Below, one piece after another: positions 32,061 through 38,770 of a stretch of 64,000 bases of DNA (its first letter is position 1; every line of letters begins with the position of its first letter). A program made the position numbers and the translations under genes. Source of the DNA: Chloroherpetonaceae bacterium. GTDB taxonomy: Bacteria > Bacteroidota > Chlorobiia > Chlorobiales > Thermochlorobacteraceae. The DNA lies in NCBI GenBank assembly GCA_025056565.1, contig JANWWA010000001.1, positions 157,966 to 221,965 on the forward strand, in the 5' to 3' direction. Below the pieces are notes generated by a model. That model saw only the letters and a list, made by a program, of their open reading frames with translations. It was not told the DNA's origin and did not search any database.

Positions 32061-33335
32061 CTAAGTGCGCAATTTGTCGGGCTGCACCTTTGCCAGCAGT
32101 GCCGCACGATGCGCAGGATAGAGGCTTGCTAAAAAGACAATCACTAGCGTTGCTGCCACCACGGCTACAAAATCCGTTGCAATCATTGAAACAGGGTAGG
32201 CACGAATAATGAACGATTCAGCCGACGGCAGCGGCACCAGCTCGAACTTTTTTTGCGCAAAGCAGACAAGAAAGCCGAACAGTGTGCCACTCACTGTGCC
32301 TATTACGCCAATTAGCAATCCCTCAAAGATGAAGAGATGTCGCAAGCTCTGAGGTGCTAATCCCATACAGGCAAGAAAGTATAGGTCGCGCCGCTTCTCA
32401 ATAGCTGTCATTGTCAATGAGCCAATCAAACTGGTTGCGGCGACCACTACGATTAGGAGCAGAATGATAAAGCTGCCCCACTTTTCTAACTTCATTACGC
32501 GGAAGAGCTCGAGAAATCTGTCGGATAGGCTCTCGGCGGCAAATTGCTCCGATAGTCCCTGTTGTCTTAGCCAGCTTTCAAGACGCGCTTTTAGTGCTTC
32601 ATCAGACACCCCTGACTTTGCACGCAGTTCAATTCCTGTTACAACCTCTGGCGTATATCCAAACACCGATTGTGCAGTACGCCGTGCGGTGAGTGCATAC
32701 ACATCGTCGTAGAGCCGATGCGCTGAAAAAAAGTTGCCAACTCGCAGCACAGGGAGTGTTATCGCAGAGCGAAGCAAAGGATTTTGCAAGGCTGCCAGTC
32801 CCTCATCAATTTGCTTGGTAGACAGCACGCGCACATCGGTGTTATACATTGCCGAAAAACGATACGCCAGCGGCAAGCCTAAAATGATGTGGTTCTCTTC
32901 CAGAAAGCGGCGGTGTTCATCTAAGTAGGGAGCAAGTTCCTGATATGCCTCTGGCTCAATGCCTTTGAGCATCACTACCCCGCTTTGCTTTGGCGTAATG
33001 AGCAAAACTTTTCCTTCTACGAATGGTCGCGCCGATGCCACGCCTTCAATCTGGCGCAGTTGCAGCAGCAGTGAGTCTGACATTGTCATCGTTGCACCTT
33101 GCTTTGGAATCAGCCGCACTTCAGTATCAATTGCTAAGAAAAGATTGTATGCAAGGTCACGAAACCCATTCATCACGGAGAGAACAATTACGATGGTGGC
33201 GGTGCCTACAATCACCCCCAAGATGCTCAGCGCAGTGATGATGTTGATCATGCGCACCTTCTTTGCTGCAAAGATAAATCGGCGCGCAACCAGCAGAGCG
33301 GTCTTCAATTGCGCTGCTCGGGAGAGCGTGCTCAT
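32061..33335 (-). CDS. LolC/LolE-type (FtsX/MacB-like) ABC transporter permease
   Basis: ARRFIFA N-terminus, a large periplasmic domain between TM1 and TM2, and a C-terminal FtsX block (IEKRRDLYFLACMGL...). ATG overlaps the upstream stop (ATGA at 33332-33335). Confidence 0.8.
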   Translation of the reverse strand: MSTLSRAAQLKTALLVARRFIFAAKKVRMINIITALSILGVIVGTATIVIVLSVMNGFRDLAYNLFLAIDTEVRLIPKQGATMTMSDSLLLQLRQIEGVASARPFVEGKVLLITPKQSGVVMLKGIEPEAYQELAPYLDEHRRFLEENHIILGLPLAYRFSAMYNTDVRVLSTKQIDEGLAALQNPLLRSAITLPVLRVGNFFSAHRLYDDVYALTARRTAQSVFGYTPEVVTGIELRAKSGVSDEALKARLESWLRQQGLSEQFAAESLSDRFLELFRVMKLEKWGSFIILLLIVVVAATSLIGSLTMTAIEKRRDLYFLACMGLAPQSLRHLFIFEGLLIGVIGTVSGTLFGFLVCFAQKKFELVPLPSAESFIIRAYPVSMIATDFVAVVAATLVIVFLASLYPAHRAALLAKVQPDKLRT

Positions 33336-34600
33336 AGTCGTATGGCATCTATTGGCTTCAAGCGGCTTGCACTTTGCGCTGGAATCAGTGAGGCAAGCAG
33401 TGCAATTGCTAGTGCTGTAATAGACACAACTCCGTAGTGCAGTGGTTCAATGAAAATCGGTGTTTCCGAAATGTAGTAGGTCTCTGCTGGCAAGGGAATC
33501 AGATGAAAGTGCTTCTCGAGCAGTGAAAGACACAGCGCCAAGGCATTCCCCGCTGCAATGCCCACCAGCGCAATGAAAAAGGCTTGTGAGACAAAGATGC
33601 GCCGAATGTGTTTTGGGCTTGCTCCAAATGACATTAGCACGCCAATCTCTGCGCTTTTTTCCAGCACGATAATGAGCAGCGTGGAGACAACGTTAAACGC
33701 AGCCACGATGGTCACCATCACCAAAAGCAGTGGCACTACATTCTTTTGCAGGCTTAGCCACGCATAAATAGCCGAGTGCAATTGATATATTGTGCGCGCC
33801 ATCAGTGGCGGACGCAAGATTTGATTTAGCTCATTCCCTGTTTGGCGCACCTGCTCAAACTCTACGGTGCGCACTTCGTAGCCAGAAATTCTCTTTGGTG
33901 CGCCCACGAAGCGTTGCAAAGCAGGGAGCGTTGTAAACACCACTGCTTCATCAAAGCCCTGTGCAAGACCTGTCTCATAAATTCCCACAACGACTGCATT
34001 GTCCAGCCGAAGTTGCTCCAAGAGGGCTTCTGGACTTTGGGGCAGCACCGTGCTCGCATCCAGTGCAGTAGCTGATGCAATCACAAGCGCTTCTGACTGA
34101 GGTGATAGCGCTAATCGCTGCGCCAGCTTTTTACCGATAAGAATCGGTAGCCCTGAGCGATATGCCGAGTCGGAGAGGAATGCACCTGCCACGACTTTTT
34201 CGCAAATGCGGCTTACGTCTTCTGTTGGCACAATACCCTTCAGCAGTGCAGGTTCCAGCAAGGGGTCGCCATTCGGTGCCCGTGATTTGAGAATGACGCT
34301 GCGCTGCAAAAATGGTGAAACCGCTGCAACATTAGGCACCTTTGAAATCTCAGATAGCACTACCGTATCAAGCGGCATTTCTTTCAGCGATGCGTGTGAA
34401 ACCTGAATATGTGCCCCAAACAGGGCAATTTTGGATTCAATAACACGGCTAAAGCCATAGACAATTGTAAGCGTGAGAATGAGTGCTGCAGTGCCTAAGG
34501 CTAAGCCTATCACAGCAATCAGTGTAATAAACGATGGGCGAGTTTGCCGCACTCTACTTGGGAAAGCAAATCGCCGAGCTACTTCCAGTTCAAACTTCAC
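33332..34600 (-). CDS. LolC/LolE-type (FtsX/MacB-like) ABC transporter permease, paralog
   Basis: VARRFAFPSR N-terminus and the same architecture as its neighbour (LEKSAEIGVLMSFGAS...). GTG start 5 nt after the stop of the GGDEF gene. Confidence 0.8.
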   Translation of the reverse strand: MKFELEVARRFAFPSRVRQTRPSFITLIAVIGLALGTAALILTLTIVYGFSRVIESKIALFGAHIQVSHASLKEMPLDTVVLSEISKVPNVAAVSPFLQRSVILKSRAPNGDPLLEPALLKGIVPTEDVSRICEKVVAGAFLSDSAYRSGLPILIGKKLAQRLALSPQSEALVIASATALDASTVLPQSPEALLEQLRLDNAVVVGIYETGLAQGFDEAVVFTTLPALQRFVGAPKRISGYEVRTVEFEQVRQTGNELNQILRPPLMARTIYQLHSAIYAWLSLQKNVVPLLLVMVTIVAAFNVVSTLLIIVLEKSAEIGVLMSFGASPKHIRRIFVSQAFFIALVGIAAGNALALCLSLLEKHFHLIPLPAETYYISETPIFIEPLHYGVVSITALAIALLASLIPAQSASRLKPIDAIRL

Positions 34601-34605
34601 GGCAC

Positions 34606-35925
34606 TTATTCTGCTTTGCTGAGTTGCAGGTCGGCGTAGTGTAGGGAACGATTGCGTCCGCGTGCTTTGGCTTCGTAGAGCGCAATATCGGCAACGCTCA
34701 CAAGTTCTTCCTCCGTATTTGCATCAGTCGGGAAAGTCGCAATTCCTAAGCTGGCAGTCAGATTACCACCGGGCTGTTTTTCTTGATTGATGAAGACTTC
34801 ATCTTCAATTGCTTTGCGAATGCGTTCTGCCACGAATTTTGCCTCTTCCTTGTCGGTGCGTGGTAGCAGCACGGCAAACTCTTCTCCGCCGAAGCGTGCG
34901 GGCACGTCGGTTTCTCGACATTCTTGGCGAATGAGTCGTGCAACTTTTTTTAGCACCTCATCGCCCAGAAGATGTCCGTTTGTGTCGTTGTAGTGTTTGA
35001 ACTTATCCACATCGACCATGATAAGTGAAAACGGCTCACCGAAGCGACGCGACCGTACCACCTCTTGATGCAGTTGCGACTTGAAGTATCGAAAGTTGTA
35101 CAGCTGCGTTTTCTCGTCCGTGATAATGAGGCGATTCAGCTCTTCGTTCTTTTCGTTGATTGCTTTGCCGAACTCCGTAATTTTTCGCACCAGCAATGTG
35201 ATTTCATCGTTAATTGGTCGCGACTGGCAGAACTGCCGCATATCGGCAATCATTTGGTTGATTGCGCTGTTATCATCTACGCTCACGCTCCCTAAGCGGT
35301 CACGAATGTCCCGAATAGGCACGACCGTTGAGCGGTAGATTGCAAACGTAACCAGCGCCAAAAGAGGCACAAAAATCGCGGCCATTCCAAAGGCAAGGTA
35401 AGCCAGCGTAGAAAGCTCTTCGCGCAGCTTATTTGATGCGCCGACCAAGTCATCTTGATTTTTCTCCAAAAGCGCATTGATTTCGCGTAGGATTCTATCT
35501 ACGCTTTGCTGCTGCTGCAATGCCAGTTGCCGAACTGCATTTTGGGACTTTGAAATTTCTGCTACTTCTGCGAAATACTGCTCCGAAAGCGTCTTGACTT
35601 GATAGAGATGGAAATAAGATAGCGAACTTGTATCTGCCTTTTTTAGTAGCCCCTTCAGGTCGCGTGTAATGCTCTCTTCCAGCGGTTTCATTTTGGAGAA
35701 AAGTGACCTGTCACCTGTTGCCACAAATTTCCACAGTCCTGAGTCATAAATCAGAAGGCGTGTTTTGACTTCCTTGAGTGTGATAAAGTCGTTGCTTTGC
35801 TCAGTTATATAACGCTTAAAATCACGCTCAAACTGGTTTAGCATCCAGAGTGAAACGATTGGATAGCTACCAGAGACTATGAGCACAAAGAGCGACAGAA
35901 AAATAATCTTGCCACGTAATGTCAT
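34606..35925 (-). CDS. membrane sensor diguanylate cyclase (TM / periplasmic helical domain / TM / HAMP-like / GGDEF)
   Basis: Two TMs flank about 150 aa of helical sequence. The GGDEF domain has a GGEEF active site, and an RETD motif lies 5 residues upstream (RxxD I-site). Confidence 0.85.
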   Translation of the reverse strand: MTLRGKIIFLSLFVLIVSGSYPIVSLWMLNQFERDFKRYITEQSNDFITLKEVKTRLLIYDSGLWKFVATGDRSLFSKMKPLEESITRDLKGLLKKADTSSLSYFHLYQVKTLSEQYFAEVAEISKSQNAVRQLALQQQQSVDRILREINALLEKNQDDLVGASNKLREELSTLAYLAFGMAAIFVPLLALVTFAIYRSTVVPIRDIRDRLGSVSVDDNSAINQMIADMRQFCQSRPINDEITLLVRKITEFGKAINEKNEELNRLIITDEKTQLYNFRYFKSQLHQEVVRSRRFGEPFSLIMVDVDKFKHYNDTNGHLLGDEVLKKVARLIRQECRETDVPARFGGEEFAVLLPRTDKEEAKFVAERIRKAIEDEVFINQEKQPGGNLTASLGIATFPTDANTEEELVSVADIALYEAKARGRNRSLHYADLQLSKAE

Positions 35926-35993
35926 AACCCATCACTGTCGTCAGCCTGCAACATACGAATTTCGAAAATAAGGTGTGCAGGCTTGAGCGTCAA

Positions 35994-36917
35994 TCAATCT
36001 TCTTTGAAGTTCACGATTCGGATAGGCACTTTGTAAGGGGCATAGCCGTGTCGGACGAAAATTTGCTGTCCTTCACGCAAAAGAAAGGAGGTAAATCCGA
36101 TTGGCAATTTTTCTCCGCGCAGGTGAGCCACATAGACAAAATGCGCAAATGGATACTTGCCTTCATAAACATTGGCTTGGAAAGGCATAACTGCTTCTGC
36201 ATTTGCAGAATCAGCCGCCAGTGCCAGCACCTTAAAGGCTGTGGTATCCATCTGCTTTACATTCAGGGCGGGGCGGGCGTGTGCAGTGCCCGTGTAAGCC
36301 AAAAAGTGCTTTGTGCGCTGCATATAGGTTTTCATCTGTGCAAATGAGGTGCAGGGGTAGGCTAACTTGGAAAATTCCAGCGATTTGAGCAAAGAATCTT
36401 GCAGCAGGTCTCGCATTCCATCGTTAGGCGAAGTAATCAGTAATTGAATAGGGGCATTTGCACCACCCACTTGCGACCAGTTTGTAACCGCGCCTGAAAG
36501 AATGTCGCGCAGTTGGCTGAGCTTCAACTGGCGCACAGGGTTTTCAGGGTGCACCAAAAAACATACGCCATCGACGCCCACAGGTCTTTTTTCCAGCTGG
36601 ATGTCGAGCTTTTTGAACGCCTCTACTTCATCAGGTTTCAAATCTCGGTTGATGACGATGAGGCGCACTTTGCGGTCCAGTAGGCGCTGCACTGCCGCCC
36701 GTGTTTGCAGTGTCTCTGCAATGAGCGTTGCGCTTTGCCAGATGCGTGTAAATTCTTGCCGCTGTGGCTCCATCGCAGGCGCCAAGGATTCGTCAATCGC
36801 ATAGCGCAGTGTGCCCTCAGTGGTGGTTTCATTTCTATCCTCGCTCGAGCCTGAGCAGCCTTGCACAAAGAGCCAAGCCAGCAAGCCTACAAGCAAAATA
36901 TGAAGCAATCGCTGCAT
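35994..36917 (-). CDS. PstS-family (PBP-like) substrate-binding lipoprotein
   Basis: Lipobox LFVQGC. Block VDGVCFLVHPENPVRQLKLSQLRDILSGAVTNWSQVGG is typical of phosphate-binding-protein-like domains. Confidence 0.7.
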   Translation of the reverse strand: MQRLLHILLVGLLAWLFVQGCSGSSEDRNETTTEGTLRYAIDESLAPAMEPQRQEFTRIWQSATLIAETLQTRAAVQRLLDRKVRLIVINRDLKPDEVEAFKKLDIQLEKRPVGVDGVCFLVHPENPVRQLKLSQLRDILSGAVTNWSQVGGANAPIQLLITSPNDGMRDLLQDSLLKSLEFSKLAYPCTSFAQMKTYMQRTKHFLAYTGTAHARPALNVKQMDTTAFKVLALAADSANAEAVMPFQANVYEGKYPFAHFVYVAHLRGEKLPIGFTSFLLREGQQIFVRHGYAPYKVPIRIVNFKED

Positions 36918-36937
36918 CGAAAATGGCGACTAAAATG

Positions 36938-38092
36938 CTACTGACGGATAACTATCTTCTGCGTAAAGGGCACCAGTCCATTTTTGAAGAAAACTTCTTG
37001 CCCTTCGCCCGGTGTACCGAAGTATAAAAATCCCGAGAATCCCGCAGGTAAGCGACCAACTGTGCGTTGAAAGTATTGAATGGCATAGCTTGCGGGGTAT
37101 TCACCGTTTGCCACATAGCCTTGCAGAGGCAGAACAGGTGAGGCTTCAAAGCCTGCCCCCTTCACTGCCACCACTTTGAACCGTGTAGTATCCTTTATAT
37201 CCACTACGAACTTACCACCTTGTTCCTTTACACCAATCACATCTTTTACATCATACATTGACACATAACCGATTGCGCCGGGTGTGCGGCTTAGCGTCGC
37301 CAGCAATTCCTCTTTAGACTTGCAGACTACAGCGCTATCCGAGAACTTCTCGCCTGCCAAGAGCGAATCCCGCAGATAGTCGCTCCGCCCATCATTGGTG
37401 AGCAGCGGTGTAACAGGCAGCGGTTTACGATTTTTATCGATGTCTGACCAATCCTTCACTTTGCCCGTGAAAAGATACTTGACTTGCTGAAAGCCTAACT
37501 CGGTGGTTGGATTTTGCGGGTGCACGATGAAACAAAATGCGTCCAGTGCGGCCTTGCGACGCTGCACACTGACATCATTAGCCCGAAACGCCGCACTTTC
37601 TTGACTGGAGCTATCGCGTATGGTGATTGCAAAGCGCAAACGTTTGTTTGCAATCTCAGACAGTGCTTCACTAGCCGACATTGGCTCGAGCATAATTTTT
37701 GCTTCTGGGCGCTTTTCATTAAACGCTTTTACCAGAATTTCAGCAAGGGGCATTAGAGCTGGCTCGACGCCAACCAACATTTCACCCTTCTGAGGGGTTT
37801 CATCTGGCTGATTGGCTTCATAGAGCGCTTGCACGGCTCGGCGGTAAATTTTGTCATCTGAGAGTTTTAGGAGCATCTCCTTTTCTGCCGCTGTGATATG
37901 GTCTTTCACAATTAGGCTTTGCTTAGCGGCATCGTAGCGCACTTTCTCCTGCAATTCCTTTGGGATTTCCACGCCACTGGGTAATGCAGCGAGCTTTACA
38001 TCGTATTCAGGCTTTGCGCAGGCAGAAAAAACCGTGGCAAGCACGACGCACAGCGCTGCTTTATGTTGAGCGAAGAAAAGCTGGCGAAGCAT
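36938..38092 (-). CDS. PstS-family (PBP-like) substrate-binding lipoprotein, longer paralog
   Basis: Lipobox TVFSAC after MLRQLFFAQHKAALCVVLA. Block LDAFCFIVHPQNPTTELGFQQVKYLFTGKVKDWSDI. I prefer the ATG at 38092 over the track start at 38248. Confidence 0.7.
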   Translation of the reverse strand: MLRQLFFAQHKAALCVVLATVFSACAKPEYDVKLAALPSGVEIPKELQEKVRYDAAKQSLIVKDHITAAEKEMLLKLSDDKIYRRAVQALYEANQPDETPQKGEMLVGVEPALMPLAEILVKAFNEKRPEAKIMLEPMSASEALSEIANKRLRFAITIRDSSSQESAAFRANDVSVQRRKAALDAFCFIVHPQNPTTELGFQQVKYLFTGKVKDWSDIDKNRKPLPVTPLLTNDGRSDYLRDSLLAGEKFSDSAVVCKSKEELLATLSRTPGAIGYVSMYDVKDVIGVKEQGGKFVVDIKDTTRFKVVAVKGAGFEASPVLPLQGYVANGEYPASYAIQYFQRTVGRLPAGFSGFLYFGTPGEGQEVFFKNGLVPFTQKIVIRQ

Positions 38093-38248
38093 ACTGCAAA
38101 GCTGGTTATGACAGTTTTTTGACAGTGCCGCACATATGTCTCTTAGGCAAAAGTAAAGTAGATTGGGCAAAGAAAAAAGGTCAGGCATTATGGCTATATA
38201 GATGGGGTTTAGTGCGTTTTGGAGATGTGTTACCACCCGCTTCAACAA

Positions 38249-38277
38249 GAGGCGAGCGAACGCTCGCCTCTTTTTTT
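38249..38277. terminator. strong GC hairpin, bidirectional terminator shape
   Basis: GAGGCGAGCG aa CGCTCGCCTC (38249-38270) is followed by TTTTTTT on the plus strand and preceded by AA. It lies 15 nt past the stop of the minus-strand ferritin-like gene. Confidence 0.55.
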
Positions 38278-38284
38278 GCTAAGC

Positions 38285-38770
38285 TTACTGTCCATTCTGG
38301 AATGCTGCAATTTCGCCCGGCTTGCGCAGCATCTTATTAACCTCCATGATGTGTAGCTCTTCGTCGTGAATCATTTGGCGAGCATATTCTTCCAGCACGA
38401 TAGACCTCCCCTCTACCAGAGAGAGTAGCTCACGGTAGGCTGCCAGCCCTGTCATTTCGTGCTCGAGTGACTCACGCAGAATTGCTCCAATGTCATGGTT
38501 GTGCGTCTCTAAGAGTGGACCGATTGCCAAAGAGGGATGTTCACCCAAGCCTGTAATTAGTTCGCCAGCTTGCTGTGCATGCGCTAGCGATTCACTGGCT
38601 TGGTTGCGTAGCCAAGAGACAATTGGAATGCGATTGTAGCCATAAATCATCAGCGAATAGTGCGTGTAGCGCACGACGCCTGCCAGCTCGGTCTCCAAAA
38701 TTTTGTTCAGCACAGCGGCTACAGCTTTTTTATCAATTTTCTCCTCAAGAACGGTTGTGGTAATCGACAT
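38285..38770 (-). CDS. ferritin-like (bacterioferritin/Dps-like) protein
   Basis: 161 aa four-helix-bundle pattern with di-iron-type residues (LETELAG...YTHY...; ESLEHEMTG; DEELH). Confidence 0.6.
   Translation of the reverse strand: MSITTTVLEEKIDKKAVAAVLNKILETELAGVVRYTHYSLMIYGYNRIPIVSWLRNQASESLAHAQQAGELITGLGEHPSLAIGPLLETHNHDIGAILRESLEHEMTGLAAYRELLSLVEGRSIVLEEYARQMIHDEELHIMEVNKMLRKPGEIAAFQNGQ

Follow-up and report, generated by a model that had tools for sequence, protein, structure and literature searches.

Five genes on the minus strand at 32061–38092 of a 64,000-nucleotide (nt) stretch of contig JANWWA010000001.1, from a Chloroherpetonaceae bacterium, bring together two lipoproteins related to the phosphate-binding protein PstS (periplasmic binding proteins A and B; PBP-A and PBP-B), a membrane diguanylate cyclase, and two ATP-binding cassette (ABC) permeases (PERM1 and PERM2) resembling those of the lipoprotein-releasing Lol system. 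We refer to the whole 64,000-nt stretch as the window. Our reading, held tentatively and with a probability of about 0.4, is that the genes form an envelope signaling cluster specific to Chloroherpetonaceae and composed of two evolutionarily separable units, the lipoprotein pair and the cyclase–permease trio, with the lipoproteins acting as co-sensors of the cyclase. An initial annotation of the locus had proposed such co-sensing with phosphate or another oxyanion as the ligand. The adjacency of the genes is conserved in 12 genomes or contigs and speaks for the co-sensing part, a case built on synteny, whereas the proposed ligand is contradicted by the residues lining the two binding pockets.

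Conservation of the Gene Order

Orthologous loci were gathered by exact-protein look-ups and one scan of the GTDB species genomes and were annotated by BLAST against a reference set. Proteins identical to those of the window occur in the Chloroherpetonaceae metagenome-assembled genome (MAG) GCA_025059935.1. The order PBP-A, PBP-B, cyclase, PERM1, PERM2 on one strand, which the initial annotation had suggested checking in relatives, is conserved in 12 distinct genomes or contigs: the window, GBChlB (L007/L018), GCA_053488375.1 (L010), a JGI contig (L014), Candidatus Thermochlorobacter aerophilum (L016), six MAGs (L019–L024), and a deeper "Chlorobiales bacterium" (L025). Protein identity across the five-gene loci is 44–76%, dropping to 44–55%, and the flanking genes differ. 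As the order persists across genomes with different flanks, the adjacency is not due to chance.

The two units are also found apart. The cyclase–PERM1–PERM2 trio occurs without adjoining PBP genes in two Candidatus Thermochlorobacter contigs (L011 and L012) and in the cultured Chloroherpeton thalassium ATCC 35110 (L013), with gaps of 5–6 nt and −4 nt in these trio-only loci. A ferritin-like gene, PBP-A, and PBP-B followed by unrelated genes were seen in [Chlorobium] sp. 445 and a Thermochlorobacter MAG (L004–L006 and L017). In [Chlorobium] sp. 445, PBP-B carries the locus tag CMR00_09445, with the cyclase (CMR00_09190) and PERM1 (CMR00_09185) on a different contig; in this one Thermochlorobacter sublineage, the lipoprotein pair and the trio have both been retained in the same genome after splitting. 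A genome scan with a single peptide pattern missed C. thalassium and the genome of L025, and a miss in it is therefore not evidence of PBP absence.

In every Chloroherpetonaceae locus that carries the cyclase, the cyclase and the two permeases make up an invariant, tightly spaced unit. The strongest linkage in the cluster is that of the cyclase with the Lol permeases, not that of the PBPs with the cyclase. Single-gene insertions are tolerated and have not dissolved the cluster: a gene for a cyclic nucleotide monophosphate (cNMP)-binding SpoIIE/PP2C phosphatase is placed between the permeases in L007/L018 (L007:13667–14887), and a D-lactate-dehydrogenase-like gene is placed between the cyclase and PERM1 in L014 and L021–L024 (L014:6968–7987).

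Loss of the Phosphate Site in PBP-A and PBP-B

PBP-A (36938–38092, minus strand) and its paralog PBP-B (35994–36917, minus strand) share 28.6% identity. The lipoboxes named in the initial annotation, TVFSAC in PBP-A and LFVQGC in PBP-B, are present, and their cysteine is invariant in the orthologs. Both proteins match the Pfam domain PBP_like_2 (PF12849) well above its cut-off of 27 bits (PBP-A 91 bits, PBP-B 114 bits), but their scores of 81.5 and 92.5 bits against the NCBIfam PstS family TIGR02136 fall below the cut-off of 206.6.

The best match of PBP-B in the PDB is Clostridium perfringens PBP-1 (4gd5/4q8r, E = 4e-17), whose phosphate ligands are Ser11, Thr12, Ser13, Ser41, Ser59, Arg125, Ser129, Gly130, and Thr131 (PMC5381212). 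In a joint alignment where PBP-1 provides the reference row S-T-S-S-S-R-S-G-T, all 10 canonical motif-complete PstS proteins, including the copy beside pstC–pstA in L004, keep the nine ligands (S-[T/D]-[T/S]-S-S-R-S-G-T). The same positions read D-E-S-T-N-T-D-G-M in PBP-B, with two of nine kept and one conservative change, and E-P-A-A-I-L-D-G-R in PBP-A, with one of nine kept; the replacement residues are conserved within each ortholog group. Six to eight of the nine ligands are thus missing from the two proteins, among them the sole arginine, Arg125, and both pockets have gained two to three acidic residues. With the only cationic ligand gone and acidic side chains in place, it is very unlikely that phosphate or another oxyanion is bound in the canonical manner, and on this nine-position comparison we rejected phosphate or oxyanion sensing. 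The pocket residues make a phosphate-sensing role of the cluster very unlikely, and a cationic or neutral ligand, or none, appears more plausible for PBP-A and PBP-B.

The accompanying suggestion that the PBPs are not ordinary transport components fared better. With PstS of the PstSCAB transporter they share the Pfam domain, an R..K..E motif, and several scaffold residues, but they differ from it in keeping only one to two of nine ligands, in the loss of Arg125, in the NCBIfam score below the cut-off, and in having no pstCAB or other transporter context alongside. Since these defining features were tested and found absent, we place the two proteins outside the PstS transport family. A separate motif-complete pstS–pstC–pstA is located elsewhere in the relative L004.

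Between its lipobox and the PBP domain, PBP-A carries a conserved N-terminal extension of ~85 amino acids (residues ~26–110; AKPEYDVKLAALPSGVEIPKELQEKVRYDAAKQ...), which is present in the L004, L007, and L010 orthologs and not in the PBP-A-like protein of L025. The extension matched no Pfam family at E ≤ 10, and a phmmer search of the PDB gave nothing credible. In an unrelated organism, the motif-complete PstS-type protein P0011 adjoins a 528-amino-acid protein with no Pfam domain and a class III nucleotidyl cyclase (Guanylate_cyc; L008/L009:10001–13503), which may be a further instance of a binding protein paired with a cyclase.

The Diguanylate Cyclase

The cyclase (34606–35925, minus strand) has the transmembrane (TM)/periplasmic/TM/GGDEF layout first assigned to it: hydrophobic segments at residues ~5–30 and 171–204 enclose a periplasmic region of ~140 amino acids (~31–170), and a helical linker leads to the GGDEF domain (159 bits in Pfam; 173 bits for TIGR00254). 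The intact GGEEF active site and the RxxD inhibitory site (I-site; RETD), which together read RETDVPARFGGEEF (RETD-x5-GGEEF), were confirmed in the window protein and in six of six orthologs examined. A Foldseek search with the full-length model returned the GGDEF domains of DosC, WspR, PleD, and YfiN (root-mean-square deviation 2.6–3.6 Å for the first three); the matches were to GGDEF domains only and say nothing on the sensor domain.

The AlphaFold2 (AF2) model of the cyclase, computed from a 12-sequence alignment, has a mean predicted local distance difference test score (pLDDT) of 70 and places helices at residues 3–70, 74–96, 102–124, and 131–213, with pLDDT of 70–89 in the periplasmic part and of 37–58 in the helical linker. 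From this helix pattern, we infer that the periplasmic domain may be an antiparallel four-helix bundle continuous with both TM helices. Searches with the periplasmic domain and the linker found nothing credible in Pfam (E ≤ 10) or, using phmmer, in the PDB. The sensor domain was found only within Chloroherpetonaceae, and it shows 21–27% identity between distant orthologs in comparison with 68–76% for the GGDEF domain.

The linker had been described as HAMP-like, a description that Pfam does not confirm for the window cyclase, as no match was found even at E ≤ 10. What speaks for it is a faint HAMP match in the L014 ortholog and the alignment of the window cyclase to the DgcN/YfiN model from residue 171, that is, from TM2 to the C terminus; with 138 bits against a cut-off of 325, the window cyclase is not a DgcN ortholog.

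The Permease Pair

PERM1 (33332–34600, minus strand) is a four-TM type-VII ABC permease, and PERM2 (32061–33335, minus strand) likewise has four TM segments. They are, as first annotated, paralogs with MacB/LolCE-like domains: their identity is 23% and both match MacB_PCD and FtsX in Pfam. Their scores against lolCE (TIGR02212) are 196 and 206 bits, respectively, below the equivalog cut-off of 362. Among PDB sequences, PERM1 is closest to LolF (121 bits) and LolE (95), followed by LolC (84) and MacB (31), and PERM2 is closest to LolC (103), followed by LolF (93) and LolE (74), with MacB not among its matches at E ≤ 1e-5. By these scores, both permeases are clearly of the Lol type, not of the MacB or FtsX type, and make up an asymmetric pair with one LolE/F-like and one LolC-like member.

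The Hook and Pad residues of LolC have been defined (PMC10865981), and in a low-identity alignment with E. coli LolC, PERM2 has an arginine at Pad R163 and NPLLR opposite the Hook T173-P-M175-G-R177; in the same alignment, the Hook-like hairpin of PERM2 is 7 amino acids longer than that of LolC, and Q181/R182 are not conserved. These Hook- and Pad-like features are suggestive only. The identity of PERM1 to its homologs falls from 50–82% in Chloroherpetonaceae to 45% in C. thalassium, 37% in Kryptonia, and ~30% in Bacteroidota, thus following taxonomic distance as expected of a vertically inherited envelope gene. Outside the five-gene and trio loci, PERM1-like genes stand by themselves in Kryptonia (L015) and a further Chloroherpetonaceae MAG (L026).

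The initial annotation saw no ABC transporter ATPase, pstC/pstA/pstB, or lolD in the window, which a motif scan and tblastn upheld. In the 64 kb, a Walker-A motif and an LSGGx ABC signature coincide in one open reading frame (ORF) only, UvrA, and tblastn of the window with the LolD-like ATPase of the lineage and with the pstC/pstA of a relative gave no match. No lolD was found beside the permease pair in any locus examined. At L011:3686–4372, 6 kb away from the trio, an orphan LolD-like ATPase is encoded that lacks a neighboring permease gene and reaches 254 bits where the cut-off is 308. The permeases resemble those of LolCDE and LolDF in the four-TM MacB-type topology, the large periplasmic domain, and the best matches to LolF, LolE, and LolC, but differ from them in lolCE scores below the cut-off and in having a cyclase gene upstream instead of an adjoining lolD. 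According to the published view, linkage of lolF with lolD is general and the split into LolC and LolE is confined to some gammaproteobacteria (PMC11784454). A lolD-less pair with a LolC-like and a LolE/F-like member is atypical against that view.

Boundaries and Neighboring Genes

The junctions of 20, 68, 5, and −4 nt between the five minus-strand genes, as given in the initial annotation, were re-derived: PERM1 starts 5 nt past the cyclase stop, and PERM2 and PERM1 overlap by 4 nt (ATGA). We corrected the start of PBP-A. It had been placed at 38248, the start of the longest ORF (36938–38248; 436 amino acids, TTG start codon), which falls within a hairpin at 38247–38272; given the ortholog starts and this hairpin, we moved it to the ATG at 38092. 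Because the PBP-A orthologs begin at the position of this ATG, the cluster extends over 32061–38092.

The hairpin at 38247–38272, between the ferritin-like gene and PBP-A, is perfectly palindromic; its 11-bp stem (AAGAGGCGAGCG-loop-CGCTCGCCTCTT) is bordered by an A-run and, on the opposite side, by a T-run. It resembles a bidirectional terminator, at which transcription of the ferritin-like gene probably stops, and it probably forms the upstream boundary of the cluster. The 68-nt spacer between PBP-B and the cyclase (35926–35993, minus strand) contains a sigma-70-like TTGACG-17-TATTTT, a consensus match only, as the promoters of this phylum may differ from the sigma-70 consensus, and no terminator-like hairpin; across orthologous loci, the length of this spacer is 16–370 nt. 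Given the sigma-70-like match, the lack of a hairpin, and the range of lengths, transcriptional read-through combined with an internal promoter for the cyclase–permease unit is plausible.

The ferritin-like gene (38285–38770, minus strand; 161 amino acids) is the immediate upstream, co-oriented neighbor of PBP-A, and such a gene is found upstream of PBP-A in all PBP loci except L025 (L004, L007, L010, L014, and L016–L024). Its product has no NCBIfam match and is 81–92% identical across species whose cluster proteins share 44–55%. Downstream of PERM2, many relatives have a gene for a ZitB-like cation diffusion facilitator (CDF) efflux protein (L007:16169–17137, L013:10658–11605, L014:10580–11539, and L018–L024), followed in L013 and L014 by genes for a cNMP_binding protein and a 2Fe-2S ferredoxin; the block that contains the CDF gene has given way to other genes in the window. 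The ferritin-like and CDF genes make up a loose metal-related neighborhood.

Two other explanations of the locus were rejected. The whole 64 kb gave no Rfam match at the gathering threshold, including riboswitches and not even a tRNA, which removes a riboswitch or other RNA element, and the GC content is flat over the window, which removes a prophage, an island, or a compositional anomaly.

Relation to Known Signaling Systems

The initial annotation took signaling from binding proteins to cyclic di-GMP (c-di-GMP) enzymes as an established precedent, and it is one: binding proteins drive GGDEF/EAL receptors (NspS–MbaA and ScrB–ScrC) as well as helical chemoreceptor domains (PMC8050422). The cluster resembles NspS–MbaA of Vibrio cholerae and ScrB–ScrC of Vibrio parahaemolyticus in that the binding-protein gene is directly upstream of, and co-oriented with, that of a two-TM c-di-GMP enzyme with a periplasmic sensor and has no transporter adjoining it, as holds for the window and 11 further genomes or contigs. 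The components differ. NspS is a PotD-type SBP_bac_8 protein and ScrB an SBP_bac_3 protein, whereas the PBPs have the PBP_like_2 (PstS) fold; MbaA and ScrC have dCache-like sensors and GGDEF-EAL outputs, whereas the cyclase has a predicted four-helix bundle and GGDEF only. Moreover, the unit studied here contains two lipidated paralogs and Lol permeases, and the interaction is putative.

A second parallel is PstS–CtpL of Pseudomonas aeruginosa, where a phosphate-loaded PBP_like_2 protein activates a chemoreceptor through a helical HBM domain (PMC8050422). As there, a PBP_like_2 protein would be paired with an all-helical periplasmic sensor, predicted in our case. The PstS of the CtpL system, however, is a phosphate binder (9 nM) whose gene accompanies pstCAB, while the proteins studied here have lost the ligands and lack pstCAB, and the output of PstS–CtpL is chemotaxis, not c-di-GMP.

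The YfiBNR system of Pseudomonas and E. coli provides a third comparison. Its periplasmic YfiR and outer-membrane lipoprotein YfiB control YfiN/DgcN, a cyclase of TM-sensor-TM-HAMP-GGDEF layout encoded in the same operon. The clustering of a membrane cyclase gene with genes for periplasmic or lipoprotein partners is common to both, but the partners found here are not homologous to YfiR or YfiB, and the sensor is a predicted four-helix bundle and not PAS-like. The cluster is not a demonstrable NspS–MbaA homolog and is best described as binding-protein-associated c-di-GMP signaling with unusual partners.

The comparisons establish the identity of the genes, their motif states, the topology of the products, and the synteny and co-occurrence of the two units; the contact of the PBPs with the cyclase, the kind of cue, and a functional link of c-di-GMP with Lol activity are inferred, all functional statements being drawn from comparative genomics. 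In the co-sensing reading that we favor, the cyclase would read a periplasmic or envelope cue through its predicted four-helix-bundle domain and make c-di-GMP, with the synthesis under product inhibition at the I-site. Its gene, upstream of those for PERM1 and PERM2, is probably co-translated with them, and the heterodimeric Lol-type pair would have to use an unlinked LolD-like ATPase. The lipoproteins may dock on the periplasmic bundle of the cyclase as accessory co-sensors, similarly to NspS–MbaA or PstS–CtpL, and would report a cue other than phosphate, either a cationic or neutral ligand or the state of the envelope. The c-di-GMP output may then be coordinated with the expression of the lipoprotein-release machinery.

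A Wider Pseudo-PstS Family and Alternative Readings

When a PBP-B profile was searched exhaustively with HMMER, 165 cluster representatives passed E ≤ 1e-30, most of them lipoproteins of ~300–320 amino acids with the same type of motif loss. A metagenome scan with a 12-sequence subgroup of this wider family identified more than 543 relatives, and we read the neighborhoods in 80 metagenome loci (L027–L106; family representatives P0145–P0292). A gene for a tetratricopeptide repeat (TPR) protein is immediately downstream in 71 of the 80 loci and a TonB_C gene immediately upstream in 48, while ExbD-type genes, usually in two copies, are upstream in 55 and ExbB is further upstream in 40. The gene array of this Ton-linked family, found in bacteria of the Fibrobacteres–Chlorobi–Bacteroidetes (FCB) group, reads exbB-exbD-exbD-tonB-X-TPR. 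Literature searches, including ones for PstS-like genes in TonB operons, found no paper on the family.

At the nine ligand positions, the Ton-linked family reads D-E-[S/T]-E-[S/T]-D-S-[S/G]-T (n = 54; D in 53, E in 48, S/T in 51, and Arg125 replaced by D in 53). Similarly to the PBPs, its members are lipoproteins with the PstS fold and of ~300–320 amino acids. PBP-B shares with them D-E-[S/T] in place of S-T-S and the loss of Arg125 (to T in PBP-B), while PBP-A, with E-P-A, matches only partly. The family differs from both PBPs in keeping Ser129 and Thr131 and in having Glu at position 41, as PBP-A and PBP-B have Asp at 129 and Ala or Thr, respectively, at 41, and its exbB-exbD-exbD-tonB-X-TPR arrangement is absent from the window. 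No Ton genes were seen in the window or the other Chloroherpetonaceae loci examined, except in L025, the deepest-branching copy of the five genes, where the PBP pair is preceded by a TonB_C gene. We tried a hidden Markov model (HMM) of the Ton-linked family to place PBP-A and PBP-B in a clade and rejected it, as some motif-complete multidomain PstS proteins scored higher. Since the HMM scores do not cleanly separate the groups, our claim is of shared derived motif states, and not of a proven clade, between PBP-A and PBP-B and the very large FCB-group pseudo-PstS family.

Several of these observations weigh against co-sensing. The PBP pair and the trio are separable, and C. thalassium has the trio with no adjoining PBPs; the PBP–cyclase spacer reaches 370 nt, and the two units may therefore be separately transcribed. 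The rapid divergence of the periplasmic domain leaves no clear conserved docking surface. The wider family sits with TonB/ExbBD and not with signaling proteins, and this association points to a possible Ton- or envelope-related role of the PBPs. The evidence that ties the PBPs to the cyclase consists of synteny only, and the AF2 model of PBP-B, from a 7-sequence alignment, had a mean pLDDT of 50 and was not used for a fold search.

Of the alternatives, the one that survives best, although we consider it unlikely, is that the PBPs are envelope or Ton accessory proteins and the trio a separate operon, the two being neighbors by inherited ancestral adjacency without direct signaling. The TonB and TPR neighborhoods of the wider family, the TonB_C gene of L025, and the derived D-E-[S/T] and Arg125 loss shared with PBP-B all agree with it, as do the splitting of the units in Thermochlorobacter, the lone trio of C. 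thalassium, the spacer lengths of up to 370 nt, and the promoter-like match in the spacer of the window. It has, however, to explain why the genes have stayed adjacent on one strand in 12 genomes or contigs, although the flanks were rearranged and other genes were inserted within the cluster; the Ton genes are missing near the PBPs in the window and most Chloroherpetonaceae loci, and the HMM scores do not cleanly put PBP-A and PBP-B in the Ton-linked group.

The linkage of the cyclase with the permeases, invariant and tightly spaced wherever the cyclase occurs in Chloroherpetonaceae, could alternatively mean that the cyclase complexes with the Lol permeases or monitors the release of lipoproteins, perhaps of PBP-A and PBP-B themselves, thereby converting Lol flux to c-di-GMP. 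Such arrangements have parallels: the kinase BceS senses in complex with BceAB, a transporter of the FtsX type, and NlpE–CpxA of E. coli monitors the release of lipoproteins from the inner membrane. All five products are envelope proteins, two of them, as lipoproteins, being substrates of Lol-type machinery by definition, and the permeases are Lol-type, with the LolC Hook-like features of PERM2 coming from a low-identity alignment. We nevertheless find this account improbable. It is drawn purely from synteny, the cyclase has a sizeable periplasmic domain of its own, unlike BceS, and PERM1-like genes exist without a cyclase outside Chloroherpetonaceae. The genes inserted between the cyclase and PERM1 and between PERM1 and PERM2 without loss of the cluster point the same way, as tolerated insertions inside the trio argue against obligatory translational coupling.

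We give still less credence to the PBPs being solute-binding proteins of an unlinked ABC importer with a non-phosphate substrate, such as a metal cation, and the other genes being unrelated. A PBP fold with a lipoprotein anchor is typical of the solute-binding proteins of importers, the acidic pocket residues are compatible with a cationic ligand, and the ferritin-like gene upstream in all PBP loci but L025 and the ZitB-like CDF gene downstream of PERM2 in many would fit a metal. Yet no importer permease or ATPase is near the PBPs in any of ~15 loci, and it would be unusual for two paralogous solute-binding proteins to differ in their pockets and to lack a transporter. The ferritin-like gene of the window, moreover, is cut off from PBP-A by a strong hairpin and is far more conserved than the cluster genes, which suggests that it is an independent housekeeping gene.

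Equally hard to credit is an envelope-surveillance device in which the pseudo-PstS lipoproteins, from a protein family elsewhere serving the Ton motor, would serve a dedicated LolC-like/LolE-like extractor as its cargo or its reporters. The cyclase, through its predicted four-helix bundle, would sense their retention at the inner membrane versus their release and so turn Lol flux or envelope stress into a c-di-GMP signal, by analogy a c-di-GMP counterpart of NlpE–Cpx or BceAB–BceS.

Discussion

If the lipoproteins control the cyclase, binding-protein c-di-GMP signaling would be extended to the PstS fold and to a non-proteobacterial phylum, Chlorobiota. The cluster would also be a case of a cyclase hard-wired beside Lol-type lipoprotein-release permeases, of which our full-text literature searches found no earlier example; searches on c-di-GMP in Chloroherpeton and Thermochlorobacter and on operons combining a cyclase with FtsX/MacB found nothing relevant. 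As C. thalassium is cultured and carries the trio, part of the system is experimentally approachable. The Chlorobiota pair of a LolC-like and a LolE/F-like permease with no lolD departs from the published account of how the Lol system evolved (PMC11784454).

The consequences of the motif loss reach beyond the cluster. Hundreds of entries named "PstS" or "phosphate transport substrate-binding protein" by annotation pipelines, including the huge family in Ton operons, have no phosphate site, and such names are therefore an unsafe basis for inferring phosphate metabolism from genomes and metagenomes of Bacteroidota and Chlorobiota. In these phyla, the pseudo-PstS lipoprotein is also an uncharacterized conserved partner of the Ton system, and this misannotated Ton-linked family is perhaps comparable in value to the cluster itself.

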